In this document: piece after piece, positions 1,419 to 16,638 of the stretch
Numbering within the stretch: the first letter of the stretch is position 1
Layout of the letters: each line of letters opens with the position of its first letter
DNA from: a virus
Lineage: Duplodnaviria; Heunggongvirae; Uroviricota; Caudoviricetes
Strand: one strand, 5' to 3'
DNA: 36,209 bases
IMG/VR virus record: IMGVR_UViG_3300026224_000019
Location: 1-36,209 of that record
Notes under the pieces: generated by a model
Told to the model about the DNA's origin: nothing
Databases searched by the model: none
What the model saw: only the letters and a program-made list of their open reading frames with translations
Translations under genes and position numbers: made by a program

Positions 1419-3899
1419 TTAAAAATCAGTCTGATTCGGGATCAGTTTTTGTATCGTGGCTGTAACGTATTTCGCCTGGTGACGGGCATCATCCAGCGCA
1501 TGGTGGCGCACGCCTTCAAATGGAATAACTGTTCTGGCATCGAAGCCGATAGTTTTTCCCAGTTCAACGATTGTACGTACATCGCGATCGTTGTAGTAAC
1601 GCCACGGGCAGGGGATGTTCAGGCGTTCGTACGAGGTTCGTAAAATAGTGTTGTCGAAAGTTGCACCATTGCCCCATACCTGAACGAATTTTTCATCTGA
1701 GTATTCGTTGATGAACTCCCGAAACCGCGAAAGGGCATCCTTCAGTTTTACCTGGTCTGTTAAAATGGCAGCTCTGGCTTCACTGGACTGCTTCAGCCAC
1801 CATTCGATGGTGCCACCGTCAGGAACAGCCCCTGTATTCATTGCGTCAGTCAGACTGATAACGATATAAAATACTGGCCCGATTTCCCCTGTTTGTGGGT
1901 CGAAGAAAACCGCACCAATAACCACGATGGGCGCATTGGCGTTGGTTCCCATTGTTTCAAGGTCGATCATCAGGTGGTACCACACTCTGCTGGTGGATGT
2001 GATAATGTGATGACCGTTCACCGCAATTAAGGGATCTGCCGTCTCGCCAGTTTTATTATCGCTGGCGTGGTCCTGAGCGCTGCCAGCATTCTTCTTGTGT
2101 GAATGTTCAGCGCCTTCCATTTCCTCCGGATCATCTTCCTGAACTTCAACCTGATACTCTTCATCGAATGTTTCCTGGTATGTTGCGTCGCCCATCACCG
2201 CGCCACAATCAGGGCAGTTGCCGCCGCCGGTTTGACCGCAGGCGGTGCAGACTTTTTCCGGTTCCTGTTGCGCTACTGGCTCAGGTTGTTTCGTTTCTGG
2301 CTCGTTTTGTAACGCATTTGGGCCGTTTTGTTCCGCTTTCTGGTCGTTCTGTTCCGTTTCTTGCTGGTTCTGATTCACTGAATCGCGGGTTTCAATCCCC
2401 TTCACCCATTTCGGATCATTCGGGTCGCTAATCCCTGCAACAAATTCACCACGTGATACAGCAAGCAACTTATCGGCGTCAGGCTGGCTGATATTGGCTG
2501 CCTGCATAATTTTGTTTACTTCGTCAGCGGTAACTTTTACCGGCTCTGGTTGTACGGTCGTGTCAGATGCACCAGTATTTTGTTGTGAACCTGAGTACGT
2601 GCCGTTTTTACGTGCGAAGTATTCCTCTTTTGTGATTTCCGTAGCTCCCAAAGCCAGCGCTTTTTCCAGACCAGAAAGTTTGTTTGCACGACCATATTTT
2701 TCGCCATCCTTATCGGTGAAAAGGAAGTAGAACGGCCCCTCACGCTCTACAGATGGTTCAGTTTCCAGCGTGCTTTCATTTTTTTGGGTATCAGATACTT
2801 CAGTTTCCACTGCATCAGTTTGTGCTGCTGACGGCTGGAGAATATCAGCAGTGCTCTGGTCTGTTTCTTCATCCTCAAACACGCCCTTTGTCGCCAGGTA
2901 TTCAGTGATGTATTTGTTCAGTGCCACGGGATCCTTGTGAATGTCGAGCGGACGCTCACGGACAAGACCAAAAATAGTCTGACGGTTGTAGCGAATGGCA
3001 TCAGGCTGTTTGCGCATTGATGCGGAAATGCGCTTCCAGTCTTCGCGGTCTTTGGCGATAACTTCATTTTCTGCCCAGCGAAGGATGTTACCGTCAATGC
3101 TTCCGGGGTCCGTATCACCAGGCCAGAGATAGCAGGCCAGCTCCCTGTCCAGCGCTTTCCATGTCTGCTTATATTCGCGACGAATGGCAGCAGTGGCAGG
3201 GTTGATTTTTTCTGCTGAGTTTTCAGTGTGCTGTCGGTTGACTCTGACGCGGGCAAGGTCAACAACAGACGTGTATTTTCCAGTCTCTTTGCGCTCTGCG
3301 TCCTGCCGTTTTTTCCAGTTACGTAATTCAGCCTGAATTTCGGGCCATTTGGCACTCGGCTTGCATTTGTGCTTAACCCATCCGATAGCGAACAGTTTGC
3401 GTTCCGGATACATAGCGTTAATTTCAGGCGTTTTCATCAATGCCTCAACGATATGCCCGTCGAATGTTGCCATGTCCTCCTGCAACAATTCCTGTGCACT
3501 AATCACCATATCAACGGTGATGTTTTCACATGTACCGAACTTAACCAGGACCGCGTTCTGTACTTCAAGGGACAGCTTGTCAAAATTGACGTTCATCGGA
3601 TCGGATTCTGGTTCGACCGGAATAAAGGAAGCGGATTCCTCATCCCAGCGGTTTTCCAGCATATATTCGGTATCCCAGGAGTCGATGGCAGGGCGGGGCA
3701 TGCCGGGTTTATCCTCGCAGACAAGAAATTTATAAGCGCAGTCCTGAGCAGCCGGATATTGCTCCAGGAATTGCCAGGTAAATTTGGCACGGGCGCGACG
3801 TTCGTCGCCGGCTTCAATGGCAGTGGCTACAGCGACTGCACCTTCTTCCTTTATTGCCTGTTCGTCCGGAATGGCGGCGCAAATAAAGACTTTACTCAT
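1419..3899 (-). CDS. Large prophage exonuclease (826 aa): C-terminal DnaQ-like 3'-5' exonuclease domain, N-terminal ~550 aa of unknown function with a Cys4 zinc-ribbon motif
   Basis: C-terminal MIDLETMGTNANAPIVVIGAVFFD ... HHALDDARHQAKY matches the DEDDh exonuclease motif pattern. CTACGQ...CPDCG zinc ribbon mid-protein. Occupies the recombination-gene position next to int/xis. Confidence 0.7.
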   Translation of the reverse strand: MSKVFICAAIPDEQAIKEEGAVAVATAIEAGDERRARAKFTWQFLEQYPAAQDCAYKFLVCEDKPGMPRPAIDSWDTEYMLENRWDEESASFIPVEPESDPMNVNFDKLSLEVQNAVLVKFGTCENITVDMVISAQELLQEDMATFDGHIVEALMKTPEINAMYPERKLFAIGWVKHKCKPSAKWPEIQAELRNWKKRQDAERKETGKYTSVVDLARVRVNRQHTENSAEKINPATAAIRREYKQTWKALDRELACYLWPGDTDPGSIDGNILRWAENEVIAKDREDWKRISASMRKQPDAIRYNRQTIFGLVRERPLDIHKDPVALNKYITEYLATKGVFEDEETDQSTADILQPSAAQTDAVETEVSDTQKNESTLETEPSVEREGPFYFLFTDKDGEKYGRANKLSGLEKALALGATEITKEEYFARKNGTYSGSQQNTGASDTTVQPEPVKVTADEVNKIMQAANISQPDADKLLAVSRGEFVAGISDPNDPKWVKGIETRDSVNQNQQETEQNDQKAEQNGPNALQNEPETKQPEPVAQQEPEKVCTACGQTGGGNCPDCGAVMGDATYQETFDEEYQVEVQEDDPEEMEGAEHSHKKNAGSAQDHASDNKTGETADPLIAVNGHHIITSTSRVWYHLMIDLETMGTNANAPIVVIGAVFFDPQTGEIGPVFYIVISLTDAMNTGAVPDGGTIEWWLKQSSEARAAILTDQVKLKDALSRFREFINEYSDEKFVQVWGNGATFDNTILRTSYERLNIPCPWRYYNDRDVRTIVELGKTIGFDARTVIPFEGVRHHALDDARHQAKYVTATIQKLIPNQTDF

Positions 3900-3990
3900 T
3901 TTGTTTTAACCTCATTACAGATTTAAGGGTGAACAAATCCCTGCCATTGCTGGCATATATAAAAAGAATCTGATTTTTGAATTACCGCAC

Positions 3991-4185
3991 TCAGGATTTT
4001 GATGCAGGTGTTTCAGTAAAATTCTGGTGTATGATTTTTTCTACCGGATAACAGTTACCGGGAATTTTCTGTTCTTTCATTGCGGCAATACATTCCTCCT
4101 TGCTGTCATAAATACCCGTTACCATATCAACCGGTTCGCTGTTAGCCATAAAAACAAGCATGACCGAGGCCCACATTACACCCAT
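3991..4185 (-). CDS. Small membrane protein (64 aa), possibly YdfD-like
   Basis: Hydrophobic N-terminus (MGVMWASVMLVFMA). Lies immediately downstream of the DicB-like gene, the position of ydfD in Qin. The homology call is from memory only. Confidence 0.45.
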   Translation of the reverse strand: MGVMWASVMLVFMANSEPVDMVTGIYDSKEECIAAMKEQKIPGNCYPVEKIIHQNFTETPASKS

Positions 4186-11524: not shown

Positions 11525-11814
11525 CTGGCCTGAAGCATTCACAACGGTAGGAATTGCGATGGCAGTGGCGCTGGTGGTGTATTCGATTTGCCGCTGGGGA
11601 TAAAAACGGTTTGCGGGAAAAAGGGAGTTAAGTAAAATTGCTGCGGGTGCTTGAGGCTATCTGTCTCAGGCATGAACACCAAAAGGCAGATAGAGAAAAG
11701 CCCCAGTTAACATTACGCGTCCTGCAAGACGCTTAACATTAATCTGAGGCCCAATCTATGTCTCACAAATGTAGGTTAGCCTCTTACGTGCCGAAAGGCA
11801 AGGAGAAGCAGGCT

Positions 11815-11970
11815 ATGAAGCAGCAAAAGGCGATGTTAATCGCCCTGATCGTCATCTGTTTAACCGTCATAGTGACGGCACTGGTAACGAGGAAAGACCT
11901 CTGCGAGGTACGAATCCGAACCGGCCAGACGGAGGTTGCTGTCTTCGTAGACTACGAATCTGAGAAGTAA
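11815..11970 (+). CDS. hokD: Hok/Gef-family type I toxin (51 aa), HokD-like
   Basis: MKQQKAMLIALIVICLTVIVTALVTRKDLCEVRIRTGQTEVAVF is the Hok signature (single TM, conserved Cys, RxxxxEV). AAGGAGAAG RBS. In-frame upstream extension from 11758 could be the mok-like leader frame. Confidence 0.8.
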   Translation: MKQQKAMLIALIVICLTVIVTALVTRKDLCEVRIRTGQTEVAVFVDYESEK

Positions 11971-13469: not shown

Positions 13470-13844
13470 ATGCGTATAGAGTTTGTTTTGCCTTACCCGC
13501 CGACGGTGAACACCTACTGGCGACGTCGTGGCAGTACATATTTTGTATCAAAAGCCGGTGAGCGTTATCGCCGTGATGTGGCGCTCATTGTTCGCCAGCA
13601 GCGGCTGAAATTAAACCTGTCCGGAAGGCTGGCGATAAAGATTATTGCAGAGCCACCGGATAAGCGCCGCCGTGACCTGGACAATATACTGAAAGCACCA
13701 CTGGATGCGCTGACGCATGCGGGACTGCTTATCGACGACGAGCAGTTTGATGAAATTAATATTGTGCGCGGACTGCCCGTTCCCGGTGGTCGGCTGGGCG
13801 TGAAGATTTACGAAATAATGCATGACGGGCAGGTCAAAAAATGA
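13470..13844 (+). CDS. rusA: Holliday junction resolvase RusA (124 aa)
   Basis: PYPPTVNTYWRRRG..., EPPDKRRRDLDNILKAPLDALTHAGLLIDDEQ matches RusA catalytic motifs (DRRRRDLDN, D-x-L). Confidence 0.85.
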   Translation: MRIEFVLPYPPTVNTYWRRRGSTYFVSKAGERYRRDVALIVRQQRLKLNLSGRLAIKIIAEPPDKRRRDLDNILKAPLDALTHAGLLIDDEQFDEINIVRGLPVPGGRLGVKIYEIMHDGQVKK

Positions 13845-14662
13845 AGCTGGAAGATTTACCGAAATACTATTCCCCAAAATCGCCTGGCCTGACTGATGCA
13901 TCCGCCTCGACGTCAAAAGATGCGCTGAGCATCACTGATGTGATGGCTGCGCAGGGTATGACACAAAACCGGGCTGAGATGGGGTTTTCTGCGTTCCTGG
14001 GGAAAATGGGCATTAGTATGAATGACAGGGCGCGGGCAACAGAATTACTGGCAGATTATGCATTAAGTCAGTGCGATCGCGTGGCGGCGTTAAGAAAACT
14101 TCCGGTAGAAATAAAACCGGCAGTGATGCGCATTATGGCTTCGTACGCTTTTGAGGATTATGCCCGCAGTGCAGCGAGTAAAAAGCAATGCCCTTGTTGC
14201 CGAGGGGAAAAATTTATTGAAAGCGAGGTTTTTACAAACAAGGTTCAGTATCCGGATGGCAAGCCGCCAGTATGGGCAAAGTGTACGAAAGGTGTGTATC
14301 CGTCTTACTGGGAAGAATGGAAAAAAATCCGGGAGTTGGTGAAAGTTTCCTGCCCGGTATGCAAGGGGAAAGGAGAGATTTCCACTGCCTGTAAAGATTG
14401 CCGTGGACGCGGTGTTGCCATTCATCGTGAAGAGTCGGAAAAACAGGGCGTACCAGTTTTCAGAAACTGTCAGCGTTGTGGTGGTCGTGGCTATGAAAGG
14501 CTGCCATCAACGGAGGCATTTAATGCCATATGCAAAGTGACGAGTGCTATCACGCTTGATACGTGGAAAAAATCAGTGAAATGCTTTTACGATACATTGG
14601 TGGTTCGGTTTGACATTGAAGAGGCATGGGCAGAGCAGCAGTTAAAGAGGGTAACGCGATAG
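13841..14662 (+). CDS. Late antiterminator Q-like protein (273 aa)
   Basis: Position directly after rusA and before a terminator and the lysis genes. Multiple CxxC zinc motifs (CPCCRG, CPVCKGKG, CKDCRGRG, CQRCGGRG). Confidence 0.65.
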   Translation: MKLEDLPKYYSPKSPGLTDASASTSKDALSITDVMAAQGMTQNRAEMGFSAFLGKMGISMNDRARATELLADYALSQCDRVAALRKLPVEIKPAVMRIMASYAFEDYARSAASKKQCPCCRGEKFIESEVFTNKVQYPDGKPPVWAKCTKGVYPSYWEEWKKIRELVKVSCPVCKGKGEISTACKDCRGRGVAIHREESEKQGVPVFRNCQRCGGRGYERLPSTEAFNAICKVTSAITLDTWKKSVKCFYDTLVVRFDIEEAWAEQQLKRVTR

Positions 14663-14744
14663 TGTTGTTGATTTTTCCCGAATCTGTGGTAAATTTGCCC
14701 TAACGATGGGCGTTTTATGCCTGACGTTAGAAGAATCTTTACAG

Positions 14745-14771
14745 CCCGCCATCGAGCGGGTTTTGTTGTTT
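14745..14771 (+). terminator. Candidate tR'-like intrinsic terminator downstream of Q
   Basis: CCCGC-CATCGA-GCGGG followed by TTTTGTTGTTT; a second GGCGGGCC-TTTTT element lies about 40 nt further on. Confidence 0.5.
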
Positions 14772-14936
14772 CTGAGGCTCGCTATGGCGGGCCTTTTTCA
14801 TATCCGCGCCACGCCCGGCGCACATCAAAAAACCACAGAGCCTTTCAGGGGTGAGCTTACGGGATGGTCAGTGTGACTTTCTCTGTGGGCTGGTCACTCC
14901 TGGGCGCAGGCTCACCCACTAAAAGGAAAAGTCACG

Positions 14937-15362
14937 ATGTTTGGTATTTTCAAAAAGAAAACCCGCAAGGCCATTACTGAAGTGAAGAAGATGGAGAACC
15001 GCGACGCAGTGGAGGCGACCGTCTGGGGCGCGTATTCCATTGCATATGCTGACGGCACCTGTGACGCGAAAGAAATCGCGGTACTGGAGAAAACCATTGC
15101 GGCACTTCCTGCCTTTGCGCCGTTCTCCGGTGAGATTGCACAAATGAGTGCAAATATCCGCGCCCGTTATGAAGCGTCGCCGCGCTCTGCCAATGCTGAA
15201 GCCCTTCGCCAGCTGGCTGATGTTGCCGGTACTGATGATGCAGTTAATGTACTGTGCCTGTGTCTGGATATCGCAGACCAGGATGGCATTGGTCCGGATG
15301 AAGAAGCGCAGCTCAAGAAAATTGCTCAGGCGCTGCAGTTACCGCTGGAGCAGTACCTGTGA
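14937..15362 (+). CDS. TerB-like domain protein (141 aa)
   Basis: Two repeats of the TerB pattern (IAYADGTCDAKEIAVLEK; CLDIADQDGIGPDEEAQLKKIAQAL) and a TerB-like N-terminus. Confidence 0.6.
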   Translation: MFGIFKKKTRKAITEVKKMENRDAVEATVWGAYSIAYADGTCDAKEIAVLEKTIAALPAFAPFSGEIAQMSANIRARYEASPRSANAEALRQLADVAGTDDAVNVLCLCLDIADQDGIGPDEEAQLKKIAQALQLPLEQYL

Positions 15363-15511
15363 AAAGTGCGCGCCTTGTGCTGGCTGCCATCCTGCTGTTT
15401 CTGGTAGTGGCGGTGGATTTCACCGGACGGCTGATGTCGGTGCTGGCAGATGGTGTGCTGGTGGCGATGGCGCTGGTCGTGCTCCGGCCTTTACTGCGTA
15501 AATCTGAATAA
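15359..15511 (+). CDS. Small hydrophobic membrane protein (50 aa)
   Basis: GTG start overlapping the TerB-like stop (GTGA). Almost entirely hydrophobic (LVLAAILLFLVVAV...VLVAMALVVL). Below the track cut-off. Confidence 0.4.
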   Translation: MKSARLVLAAILLFLVVAVDFTGRLMSVLADGVLVAMALVVLRPLLRKSE

Positions 15512-15559
15512 CACCACACAAAAGGCATCTGCGGGTGCCTTTAACGGGGTGTTTTTTAC

Positions 15560-15582
15560 GGGCCGCTGGTGGCCCTTTTTTA
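15560..15582 (+). terminator. Candidate intrinsic terminator closing the cargo pair
   Basis: GGGCC-GCTGGT-GGCCC followed by TTTTTTATTT. Confidence 0.4.
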
Positions 15583-15600
15583 TTTACAGGAGAAAAAAGT

Positions 15601-15993
15601 ATGTCTGAACCCTTATCCGGTTCCGGCACGGCTGCGGCGCTCGGTGGGGCGACGGTGTACGGGCTGTTTACCGGAACGGATTTCGGGATTGTGTTTGGTG
15701 CGTTCGCCGGGGCGTTATTTGTGGCAACGATGCCGCAGACGCTTTCAGCCTGGCGTGTTGCGGCGCATTTTCTGGTGTCGTTTATCGTGGGCGTACTGGG
15801 GGCAGAGGTTCTGGCATCCTGGCTGGTAAAGCATACAGAGTTTGACGGTGCACCTGTCGACGCATTGTGTGCAGTACTGGTGTCTGTATTGTCGGTAAAA
15901 GTGCTGTCCTTTGTGCACAGGCAGGACGTTATATCACTGATGTCCTGTCTGCTCTCCCGCCTGAAGAGTGGTGGAGGCGACAATGTTAAGTAA
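15601..15993 (+). CDS. Holin-like membrane protein (130 aa)
   Basis: ATG with AGGAGA RBS; multiple predicted TM segments; first gene of a cluster ending in an endolysin. Confidence 0.5.
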   Translation: MSEPLSGSGTAAALGGATVYGLFTGTDFGIVFGAFAGALFVATMPQTLSAWRVAAHFLVSFIVGVLGAEVLASWLVKHTEFDGAPVDALCAVLVSVLSVKVLSFVHRQDVISLMSCLLSRLKSGGGDNVK

Positions 15994-16258
15994 CCTTCCC
16001 GGATTACTGAATGTGGCGTTATGCACGGTTATCGTGCTGACGCTCTTTTTTTATCGTCGCCGTGATTCCAGACATAAACCGCTGATGTCATGGCTGGCCT
16101 GGCTGCTGATGTTGCTTTATGGCTTTGTTCCACTCAGCTATCTGTGTGGTCGCCCGTTAGAAACAGACTGGTTCCAGGTGTTTTTTAACCTGCTGTTCTG
16201 CGTGCTGGTGATACGCGCACGCGGGAACGTCACAAAAATCTTTCCATTGTTGAGGTGA
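15983..16258 (+). CDS. Second holin-like or antiholin-like membrane protein (91 aa)
   Basis: Two or three hydrophobic segments; start overlaps the previous gene; immediately precedes the endolysin. Confidence 0.5.
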   Translation: MLSNLPGLLNVALCTVIVLTLFFYRRRDSRHKPLMSWLAWLLMLLYGFVPLSYLCGRPLETDWFQVFFNLLFCVLVIRARGNVTKIFPLLR

Positions 16259-16260
16259 AT

Positions 16261-16638
16261 ATGTCGGGTAAATTCAGATTTAGTCGTCGCAGCGAAAAGA
16301 ATCTGGAGGGCGTCAAACCACAGCTGGTTGCTGTCGTTCGCCGTGCCCTTGAGCTGACGGAGGTTGATTTCGGTATTACGGAAGGCCTGCGCAGTAAGTA
16401 TCGCCAGAAACAGCTGGTCGCAGAAGGTAAGAGCCAGACCATGAACAGCCGCCACCTGACCGGTGATGCGGTGGATGTTGTGGCCTACATTGGCAGCCAG
16501 GTGTCATGGGACTGGCCTCTGTACGAGAAAATCGCGCAGGCATTTAAGCAGGCTGCCGCAGAGCTGGGAACCGCCATTGAATGGGGCGGGGACTGGAAAA
16601 CACTGAAAGACGGGCCTCATTTTCAATTGAAGCGATAG
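16261..16638 (+). CDS. Endolysin, peptidase M15 family (125 aa)
   Basis: SRHLTGDAVDVV and GPHFQL match the zinc-binding H-x6-D ... H pattern of M15 (VanY-like) cell-wall peptidases. Confidence 0.7.
   Translation: MSGKFRFSRRSEKNLEGVKPQLVAVVRRALELTEVDFGITEGLRSKYRQKQLVAEGKSQTMNSRHLTGDAVDVVAYIGSQVSWDWPLYEKIAQAFKQAAAELGTAIEWGGDWKTLKDGPHFQLKR

Follow-up and report, generated by a model that had tools for sequence, protein, structure and literature searches.

A tciA-tciB accessory module in the stx-equivalent slot of a tailed phage

What is the two-gene unit that a tailed phage carries between its Q antiterminator and its lysis genes, in the slot where Shiga toxin (Stx) phages carry their toxin genes, and what might it do there? 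The stretch of DNA analyzed here (the window) comprises 36,209 nucleotides (nt), positions 1 to 36,209 of IMG/VR record IMGVR_UViG_3300026224_000019, and its post-Q region contains two same-strand open reading frames (ORFs), encoding a TerB-family protein of 141 amino acids (aa) and then a hydrophobic peptide of 50 aa, set between the Q antiterminator and a two-holin/endolysin cassette. An original prediction, made from the nucleotide sequence and its translations, had described the two ORFs, a ribosome-binding site of their own and hairpins on either side, and this description is accurate as to the ORFs, the AGGA element and the hairpins at 14743-14762 and 15560-15575. We find with high confidence, as regards both identity and architecture, that the pair is another copy of the tciA-tciB accessory (moron) module of temperate enterobacterial phages (all positions are those of the whole window):

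14937-15362, + strand: tciA, encoding a 141-aa cytoplasmic TerB-family protein; ATG start, with AGGA at 14924-14927, nine bases upstream
15359-15511, + strand: tciB, encoding a 50-aa DUF3927 peptide with two hydrophobic segments; GTG start, with GGAG 8 nt upstream

A search of phage genomes retrieved P1 tciA at 79% nucleotide identity (GenBank AF234172), and at the protein level the window TciA is 86% identical to P1 TciA and the window TciB 48% identical to P1 TciB. The likeness extends to the organization of the two loci, in each of which a TerB-family TciA directly precedes a DUF3927 TciB, the stop of the first gene overlapping the start of the second, and the pair occupies a variable accessory region of a temperate phage; in the window the GTG start of tciB shares bases with the TGA stop of tciA (GTGA, 15359-15362). 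The copies differ in that P1 has tciC, a 35-aa peptide, whereas the window has no ORF between the tciB stop (15511) and the holin start (15601) and thus lacks a P1-type tciC; because this gene is absent from the lambdoid copies examined, we treat it as an optional P1-type extra. They differ also in setting, P1 tciABC lying among tRNA genes downstream of the C1-controlled Pban promoters and the window copy between Q and the holins. Near-identical E. coli copies are annotated in RefSeq as 'tellurite resistance TerB family protein' followed by 'DUF3927 family protein', and public databases hold proteins 97-98% identical to the window TciA and 98% identical to the window TciB, with IMG/VR matches to TciA of up to 100%. 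The names tciA-tciB(-tciC) were reportedly given in the P1 genome paper of Lobocka and colleagues in 2004. Since the pair is already named and widely annotated, the suggestion that such a pairing had not been described fails: it is P1 tciA-tciB (AF234172), its members fall into PHROG moron families and RefSeq annotates them. As a discovery the locus is accordingly limited, the pair having been named since 2004, catalogued in PHROGs and Pfam and annotated routinely.

TciA matches the Pfam TerB family (PF05099) at 32.4 bits, above the gathering cut-off of 24.4, in two stretches (E 1.2e-7), and belongs to PHROG 632 ('tellurite resistance', moron category; E 4.3e-65, residues 1-141 versus profile 1-143). 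An AlphaFold model built with 14 homologues (mean pLDDT 86, pTM 0.83) places six helices within residues 22-132, and fold comparison of this model recovers TerB-like structures, consistent with an all-helical TerB-like fold; together with the Pfam score, the predicted fold upholds the assignment of the first protein as TerB-like. Against the sequences of solved structures, the TciA profile gave no significant match. The N-terminal tail is modeled with low confidence and predicted to be disordered; its residues 1-20 include 7 K/R versus 2 D/E, the remainder of the protein being acidic, and its motif KK-x-ENR-D/N is kept even in homologues only 30-35% identical. We predict that this conserved basic tail is a binding interface, on a protein that the model presents as soluble, acidic and of a six-helix TerB fold. 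The gene is under strong purifying selection (dN/dS 0.05). TciB, for its part, is a member of Pfam DUF3927 (E 2.4e-14) and of PHROG 1470 ('TciB-like inhibition of cell division or resistance to colicin', moron category; E 2.5e-24). Its grand average of hydropathy (GRAVY) is +1.4, with two hydrophobic stretches separated by DFTGR and K/R at both ends; D31 is invariant, D20 nearly so and the VDF motif nearly invariant, such that one conserved Asp stands in or beside each hydrophobic segment. This composition suggests a membrane hairpin with both the N and C ends in the cytoplasm. Purifying selection on tciB (dN/dS 0.33-0.39) is weaker than on tciA.

The two genes form one unit and are almost never separated. 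We collected 97 loci with full-length tciA from IMG/VR, GTDB species representatives and annotated records: in 93 of them tblastn finds tciB directly downstream, and in 96 a tciB reading frame follows tciA; two diverged loci, one from Scandinavium and one, at 68% TciA identity, from Rosenbergiella, carry recognizable tciB-like ORFs, one locus (L090) combines a tciA pseudogene with an intact tciB, and one has a truncated tciB. The GTGA overlap of stop and start is seen in 83 loci. When loci are collected from the tciB side instead, full tciA is present in 66 of 79 and truncated tciA in 13, with tciA missing from none, and adjacency is kept at TciA identities as low as 34% (an IncY phage-plasmid) and 29% (an Aeromonas plasmid). 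The pair is thus adjacent in nearly all loci of both surveys, and the small ORF, which had been read as a conserved, translationally coupled membrane peptide, is just that by its overlapping start, its persistence after tciA and its dN/dS. Separately, a 33.9-kb Logan contig encodes a 196-aa protein, P0051, in which P1-type TciA and TciB are joined in a single chain containing both Pfam domains, with a frameshift at the junction; either a sequencing error or a fusion that exists in nature could account for it.

Given the TerB domain, the first comparison to be drawn is with the ter genes. The canonical ter resistance trait belongs to the six-gene operon terZABCDE, and TerB has been reported both to partner the membrane protein TerC (PMC11003894) and to associate with the membrane (Millman et al. 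preprint). The tciAB pair shares with this system the TerB Pfam domain, the TerB-like helical fold and the encoding of a soluble protein beside a membrane protein. It differs in its neighborhood, as TciA lies near DUF968, RusA, Q, holins and endolysin with no terZ, terA, terC, terD or terE alongside, and in its membrane partner, which is a multi-pass TerC in the ter operon and a 50-aa peptide here. Known defence systems offer a second comparison, since Bunzi and Shango likewise combine a TerB-type domain with a mobile-element setting and a proposed membrane link. Neither TciA nor TciB, however, has a family in PADLOC-DB v2.0.0 at E up to 1, there is no adjacent helicase or ATPase gene of the kind found with Shango, and the Bunzi TerB protein has transmembrane helices of its own, whereas TciA lacks them and the membrane peptide is encoded separately.

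These comparisons bear on whether the pair excludes other phages, by sensing or altering the membrane and possibly through abortive infection, in the manner of ter phage inhibition or of Bunzi and Shango. References cited in a 2022 survey of P1-like plasmids link ter clusters to phage inhibition and colicin resistance (PMC9603915), 'membrane surveillance' has been proposed for Bunzi and Shango with their TerB domains (among others in the Millman et al. preprint), and tciAB resides in the variable parts of prophages and phage-plasmids, a frequent location of defence genes. The same survey finds about half of one subgroup of the P1-like plasmids without the operon and states that its link to phage inhibition 'remains unclear' (PMC9603915). 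The absence of any PADLOC match and of a helicase, ATPase or other effector partner argues against a defence role, as does the fact that defence in a lysogen would need a promoter and none was found; we consider exclusion a rather unlikely account of the pair.

The genes around the pair in the window are the following:

Upstream of Q: a DUF968 gene and rusA (Pfam)
13841-14662, + strand: Q-type late antiterminator, 273 aa, with a DnaJ-type zinc finger (Pfam PF03589, E 3.9e-51; PHROG 127, 25523)
15601-15993, + strand: Phage_holin_8 (Pfam and PHROG)
15983-16258, + strand: Phage_holin_3_7 (Pfam and PHROG)
16261-16638, + strand: M15 endolysin (Pfam and PHROG)

Further away, in the early region of the prophage, window positions 11645-11820 match the sok antisense RNA (Rfam RF01794, 120 bits) and mark a hok/sok-type toxin-antitoxin locus.

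The Q protein is 90% identical to quuQ of the Stx2a phage Stx2_EH1910, which has the same ydfU-rusA-Q genes and post-Q region as the window, and in phage P27 stx2e stands immediately upstream of the same holin cassette, so that the placement of the pair in the stx-equivalent slot is confirmed from both sides. The same holin, at 85% identity or above, is encoded in 78 IMG/VR loci with sufficient sequence upstream of it; of these, 14 contain tciAB, 60 neither gene and 4 fragments; with the pair in 14 of the 78, it is not a standard accessory of this lysis cassette. Elsewhere the slot is occupied by a DNA methylase with tRNA genes, by an AraC-family regulator, by stx2e, or by nothing beyond Q. 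In three loci (L120, L122 and L127) it contains ORFs that, from their translations inspected by eye, we take to be the A and B subunits of a heat-labile enterotoxin type II (LT-II), and elsewhere an ORF set that we presume, on the same basis, to be the subtilase cytotoxin SubAB. Two side observations concern such occupants: the gene order of the LT-II-like unit in L127 is B then A, and L126 and L129 hold an unannotated two-gene unit encoding a 220-aa protein and then a 169-aa apparent multi-pass membrane protein. The pair resembles the stx2a, stx2e, LT-II and subAB cargoes in using the same genomic slot, with a shared upstream Q/promoter/terminator or a shared downstream holin cassette; the proteins themselves are unrelated, secreted virulence factors there and a cytoplasmic protein with a tiny membrane peptide here. 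In P1-type elements, the pair sits beside ban/dnaB, far from the lysis genes. The tciAB module is optional cargo, gained and lost independently of the lysis genes.

The proximity of the holins nonetheless raises the question of whether TciB or TciA acts as an antiholin-like regulator that times the firing of the adjacent two-holin cassette. In 69 of 93 adjacent-pair loci, lambdoid and P1-type combined, the gene after tciB is a Phage_holin_8, 80-109 nt away in 66 of them; this linkage persists where the holins are only 43-48% identical (L008, L009 and L019), and TciB is a small membrane peptide. Such a regulator would, however, be missing from the 60 of 78 same-holin phages that have neither gene, P1 and other phage-plasmids carry the pair beside replication genes rather than lysis genes, and the recombination joint falls exactly at the tciB stop, with the holin leader as a separate unit. 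A role in lysis timing is therefore quite improbable.

Two of the toxin-bearing loci retain traces of the pair. In phage P27 (L005, AJ298298) the last ~100 nt of tciB, frameshifted, lie between stx2eB and the holin leader (~3940-4140), and subAB in the IMG/VR locus L176 is followed by the second half of tciA and by a tciB with a frameshift (~3109-3365). As these remnants stand directly beside the toxin genes, they suggest that the stx2e and SubAB cassettes were inserted into tciAB, or displaced it, in at least the P27 and L176 lineages.

Where, then, does the module begin and end? The original prediction had described an insert bounded by two terminators, and the region between 14400 and 15800 is indeed rich in terminator-like hairpins (7, versus 2.4 +/- 1.5 in shuffled sequences):

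14668-14695, + strand: candidate late promoter (PR'-like, of the extended -10 type), identified by eye (TTGATT, a 16-nt spacer ending in TG-n, TAAATT)
14696-14712: terminator-like hairpin
14743-14772, + strand: hairpin 14743-14762 with T-run (-11.2 kcal/mol, z -3.1)
14774-14800, + strand: hairpin 14774-14795 with T-run, at the 5' edge of the module (-14.9 kcal/mol, z -3.9)
14801-14936, + strand: conserved leader of ~140 nt with the tciA ribosome-binding site, containing a predicted long hairpin at ~14838-14914
15521-15582, + strand: two hairpins in the holin/lysis-cassette leader, one at 15521-15542 and one at 15560-15575 with a T-run

Both of the hairpins originally taken as the boundaries exist, but the 5' one belongs to the Q module and the 3' one to the holin leader. 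Positions 14663 to ~14768 constitute the Q module, with 92% identity to Stx2_EH1910 over 14665-14764, and the hairpin at 14743-14762 is common to the Q modules of Stx2_EH1910 and L093 and absent from tciAB loci with other Q genes; it is most likely a tR'-like terminator read through by Q. After this module, Stx2_EH1910 continues with a methylase, tRNAs and stx2AB, and L093 with tRNA genes and then tciAB. The 5' joint of the tciAB module lies at ~14769, with E. coli matches beginning at ~14769-14778. In every context examined a terminator hairpin precedes tciAB, differing in sequence between loci and each time followed by a T-run. The leader that comes next is 83-98% identical among lambdoid tciAB loci and absent from P1-type loci. 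The stretch 14769-14945 folds more stably than shuffled sequences (z -3.2), a value that includes the contribution of the 14774-14795 hairpin; eight diverse leader sequences show no compensatory pair changes, and the leader has no Rfam match. At the other end, homology to the window starts at ~15500-15519 in 57 of 80 same-holin loci, whatever lies upstream, and the hairpins at 15521-15582 are therefore assigned to the holin leader; phage P27 and the SubAB locus L176 both conserve this leader, and relatives without tciAB also have the 3' hairpin. The 3' joint of tciAB is the tciB stop codon itself, which makes the holin leader a separate unit. In its presence/absence polymorphism, sharp joints (~14769 and the tciB stop) and flanking terminators, tciAB has the features of a moron.

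The same region contains the clues to expression. A sigma-70 consensus scan of 14400-15800 gave no match, and inspection by eye yielded weak candidates only; the candidate PR'-like promoter agrees with the consensus at 8 of 12 positions, below the scan threshold, and lies in a region conserved with Stx2_EH1910 and L093. Since no promoter was found for the pair, terminators precede it and a probable late promoter follows Q, the pair is probably made during lytic growth, and we consider it moderately probable that tciAB is expressed from the late transcript, of which it would be the first coding unit, antiterminated by Q and made during induction. The claim that the pair is amplified on induction is thus not established, as no promoter of its own was found, and would be plausible only through the Q-dependent late transcript. 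A parallel arrangement is seen in P1: there tciABC is flanked by the annotated C1-controlled Pban promoters on one side and by ban on the other (AF234172), and hence appears to be part of the ban operon.

What the two proteins could do in a phage-producing cell is suggested by their homologues. The TerB-TerC partnership, the membrane association of TerB and the strict coupling of tciA to tciB point to joint action of TciA and TciB at the inner membrane. TciB would insert there as a hairpin and either recruit and tether TciA or be regulated and gated by it, as is the case for TerB with TerC; the resulting complex would condition the inner membrane of the phage-producing cell, perhaps so as to keep the membrane intact or its ions in balance in the face of pore-formers, superinfecting phage or early firing of the holins. 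In this proposal tciAB would be neither a toxin nor a core lysis protein but a fitness factor that the phage can do without. Consistent with dispensability, P1 tciA, tciB and tciC were all scored as non-essential in a CRISPR interference (CRISPRi) screen (PMC10695390). We put forward such a role in membrane protection tentatively, by analogy with the ter proteins.

Several points weigh against this proposal, and some of them favor other accounts. The TerB match of TciA in Pfam is weak and partial, its best stretch aligning residues 11-57 with positions 60-106 of a 118-position profile, and we found no experiment on the function of tciAB or DUF3927 in the literature. Contact between TciA and TciB is proposed from gene linkage, and folding of P0051 on its own produced a low-quality model (pLDDT 64) in which TciB forms a single long helix. 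With respect to expression, the promoter scan used a strict consensus, the conserved 140-nt leader could hold a non-canonical promoter, and expression of the pair in the lysogen, if present, would favor a role in lysogenic conversion. In that case the pair would confer resistance to tellurite, oxidative stress or pore-forming colicins on the host, as its homology-derived names ('tellurite/colicin resistance protein') would have it, and the terminator-gene-terminator layout is indeed typical of morons, with a leader in which a promoter could be hidden. Yet the canonical trait is encoded by terZABCDE, to be compared with a single distant TerB-like gene between Q and holins; no consensus promoter was found, and the P1 copy stands downstream of the repressor-controlled Pban promoters, all of which makes lysogenic conversion improbable.

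The remaining point against joint action of the two proteins is a lineage in which they are not both whole. In 12 of the 79 loci collected from the tciB side, a 5'-truncated tciA (residues 73-141, equivalent to PHROG 9865) accompanies an intact tciB:

5'-truncated tciA loci: L210, L212-L218, L221-L223 and L233; in E. coli, NZ_CP024240 and NZ_CM180507 (H56, H57)

This variant may be in decay or may represent a shortened form that is still functional, and unless it is decaying it fits poorly with an obligate two-protein complex. It fits no better with TciB as a membrane-depolarizing small toxin of the type I kind that TciA would neutralize, in the service of addiction or abortive infection. The size and composition of TciB do resemble those of small hydrophobic toxins, the two genes are tightly coupled, and the module occurs on plasmid-prophages that need stabilizing; but intact tciB persists beside the tciA pseudogene of L090 and beside the 5'-truncated tciA genes, which would be unexpected if free TciB were lethal. 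Furthermore, P1 already has phd-doc for addiction (PMC9603915) and tolerates knockdown of tciA (PMC10695390), and we regard a toxin-antidote pair as very improbable.

Within the framework of a TciA-TciB complex at the inner membrane, a further and still more tentative reading can be formulated. Here tciAB would be a minimal two-protein membrane device, in which a TerB-fold sensor or regulator acts with the 50-aa membrane peptide and its conserved Asp residues to exclude competing phages or colicins, or to counter host abortive-infection systems that collapse the membrane potential. It could be deployed on induction or, from an unrecognized promoter, in lysogens.

How widespread is the module? 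Of 5426 complete E. coli genomes, 345 (~6%) contain a match to the tciAB coding region, and in 165 of these the match covers 80% or more of the query, all of them chromosomal and lambdoid; the matching places on plasmids number 166. A higher count of 2243 of the 5426 genomes was rejected as a measure of prevalence, as it reflects mostly the shared holin leader and other flanks rather than the genes. TciA matches 799 plasmid records, 781 of them non-mobilizable and with listed examples of ~90-115 kb, whose hosts are mostly E. coli and Klebsiella, with some Salmonella, Shigella, Cronobacter and Aeromonas. When 1.84 billion representative proteins were searched exhaustively with a profile, only 237 came back at E up to 0.001, the majority of them 140-150 aa long; the TciA family is therefore small and compact. 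Some records carry doubtful host labels. One annotated as 'Actinobacillus phage vB_Apl-pPE4' (L003, PP818812) is 95.7% identical to the window over tciAB and 88-98% over holin and endolysin; it looks like an E. coli lambdoid prophage, and its Actinobacillus pleuropneumoniae host label may be wrong. Likewise, tciA at 80-96% identity occurs on GTDB contigs labeled as a Bacillota metagenome-assembled genome (MAG), Pseudomonas lundensis, Acinetobacter idrijaensis and Kocuria sabuli (L006, L012, L021 and L022), three of them short (221-2736 bases) and the Pseudomonas contig 760 kb in length; the short contigs with their enterobacterial-type tciA are likely contamination.

The tciAB remnants beside toxin genes provide a small but concrete clue to how toxin-converting phages are assembled. 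If the pair does act as a membrane device, this would be the first defined function both for a free-standing TerB protein and for DUF3927. As a widespread and strictly linked phage module of small size, tciAB would lend itself to the study of TerB domain action at the membrane.

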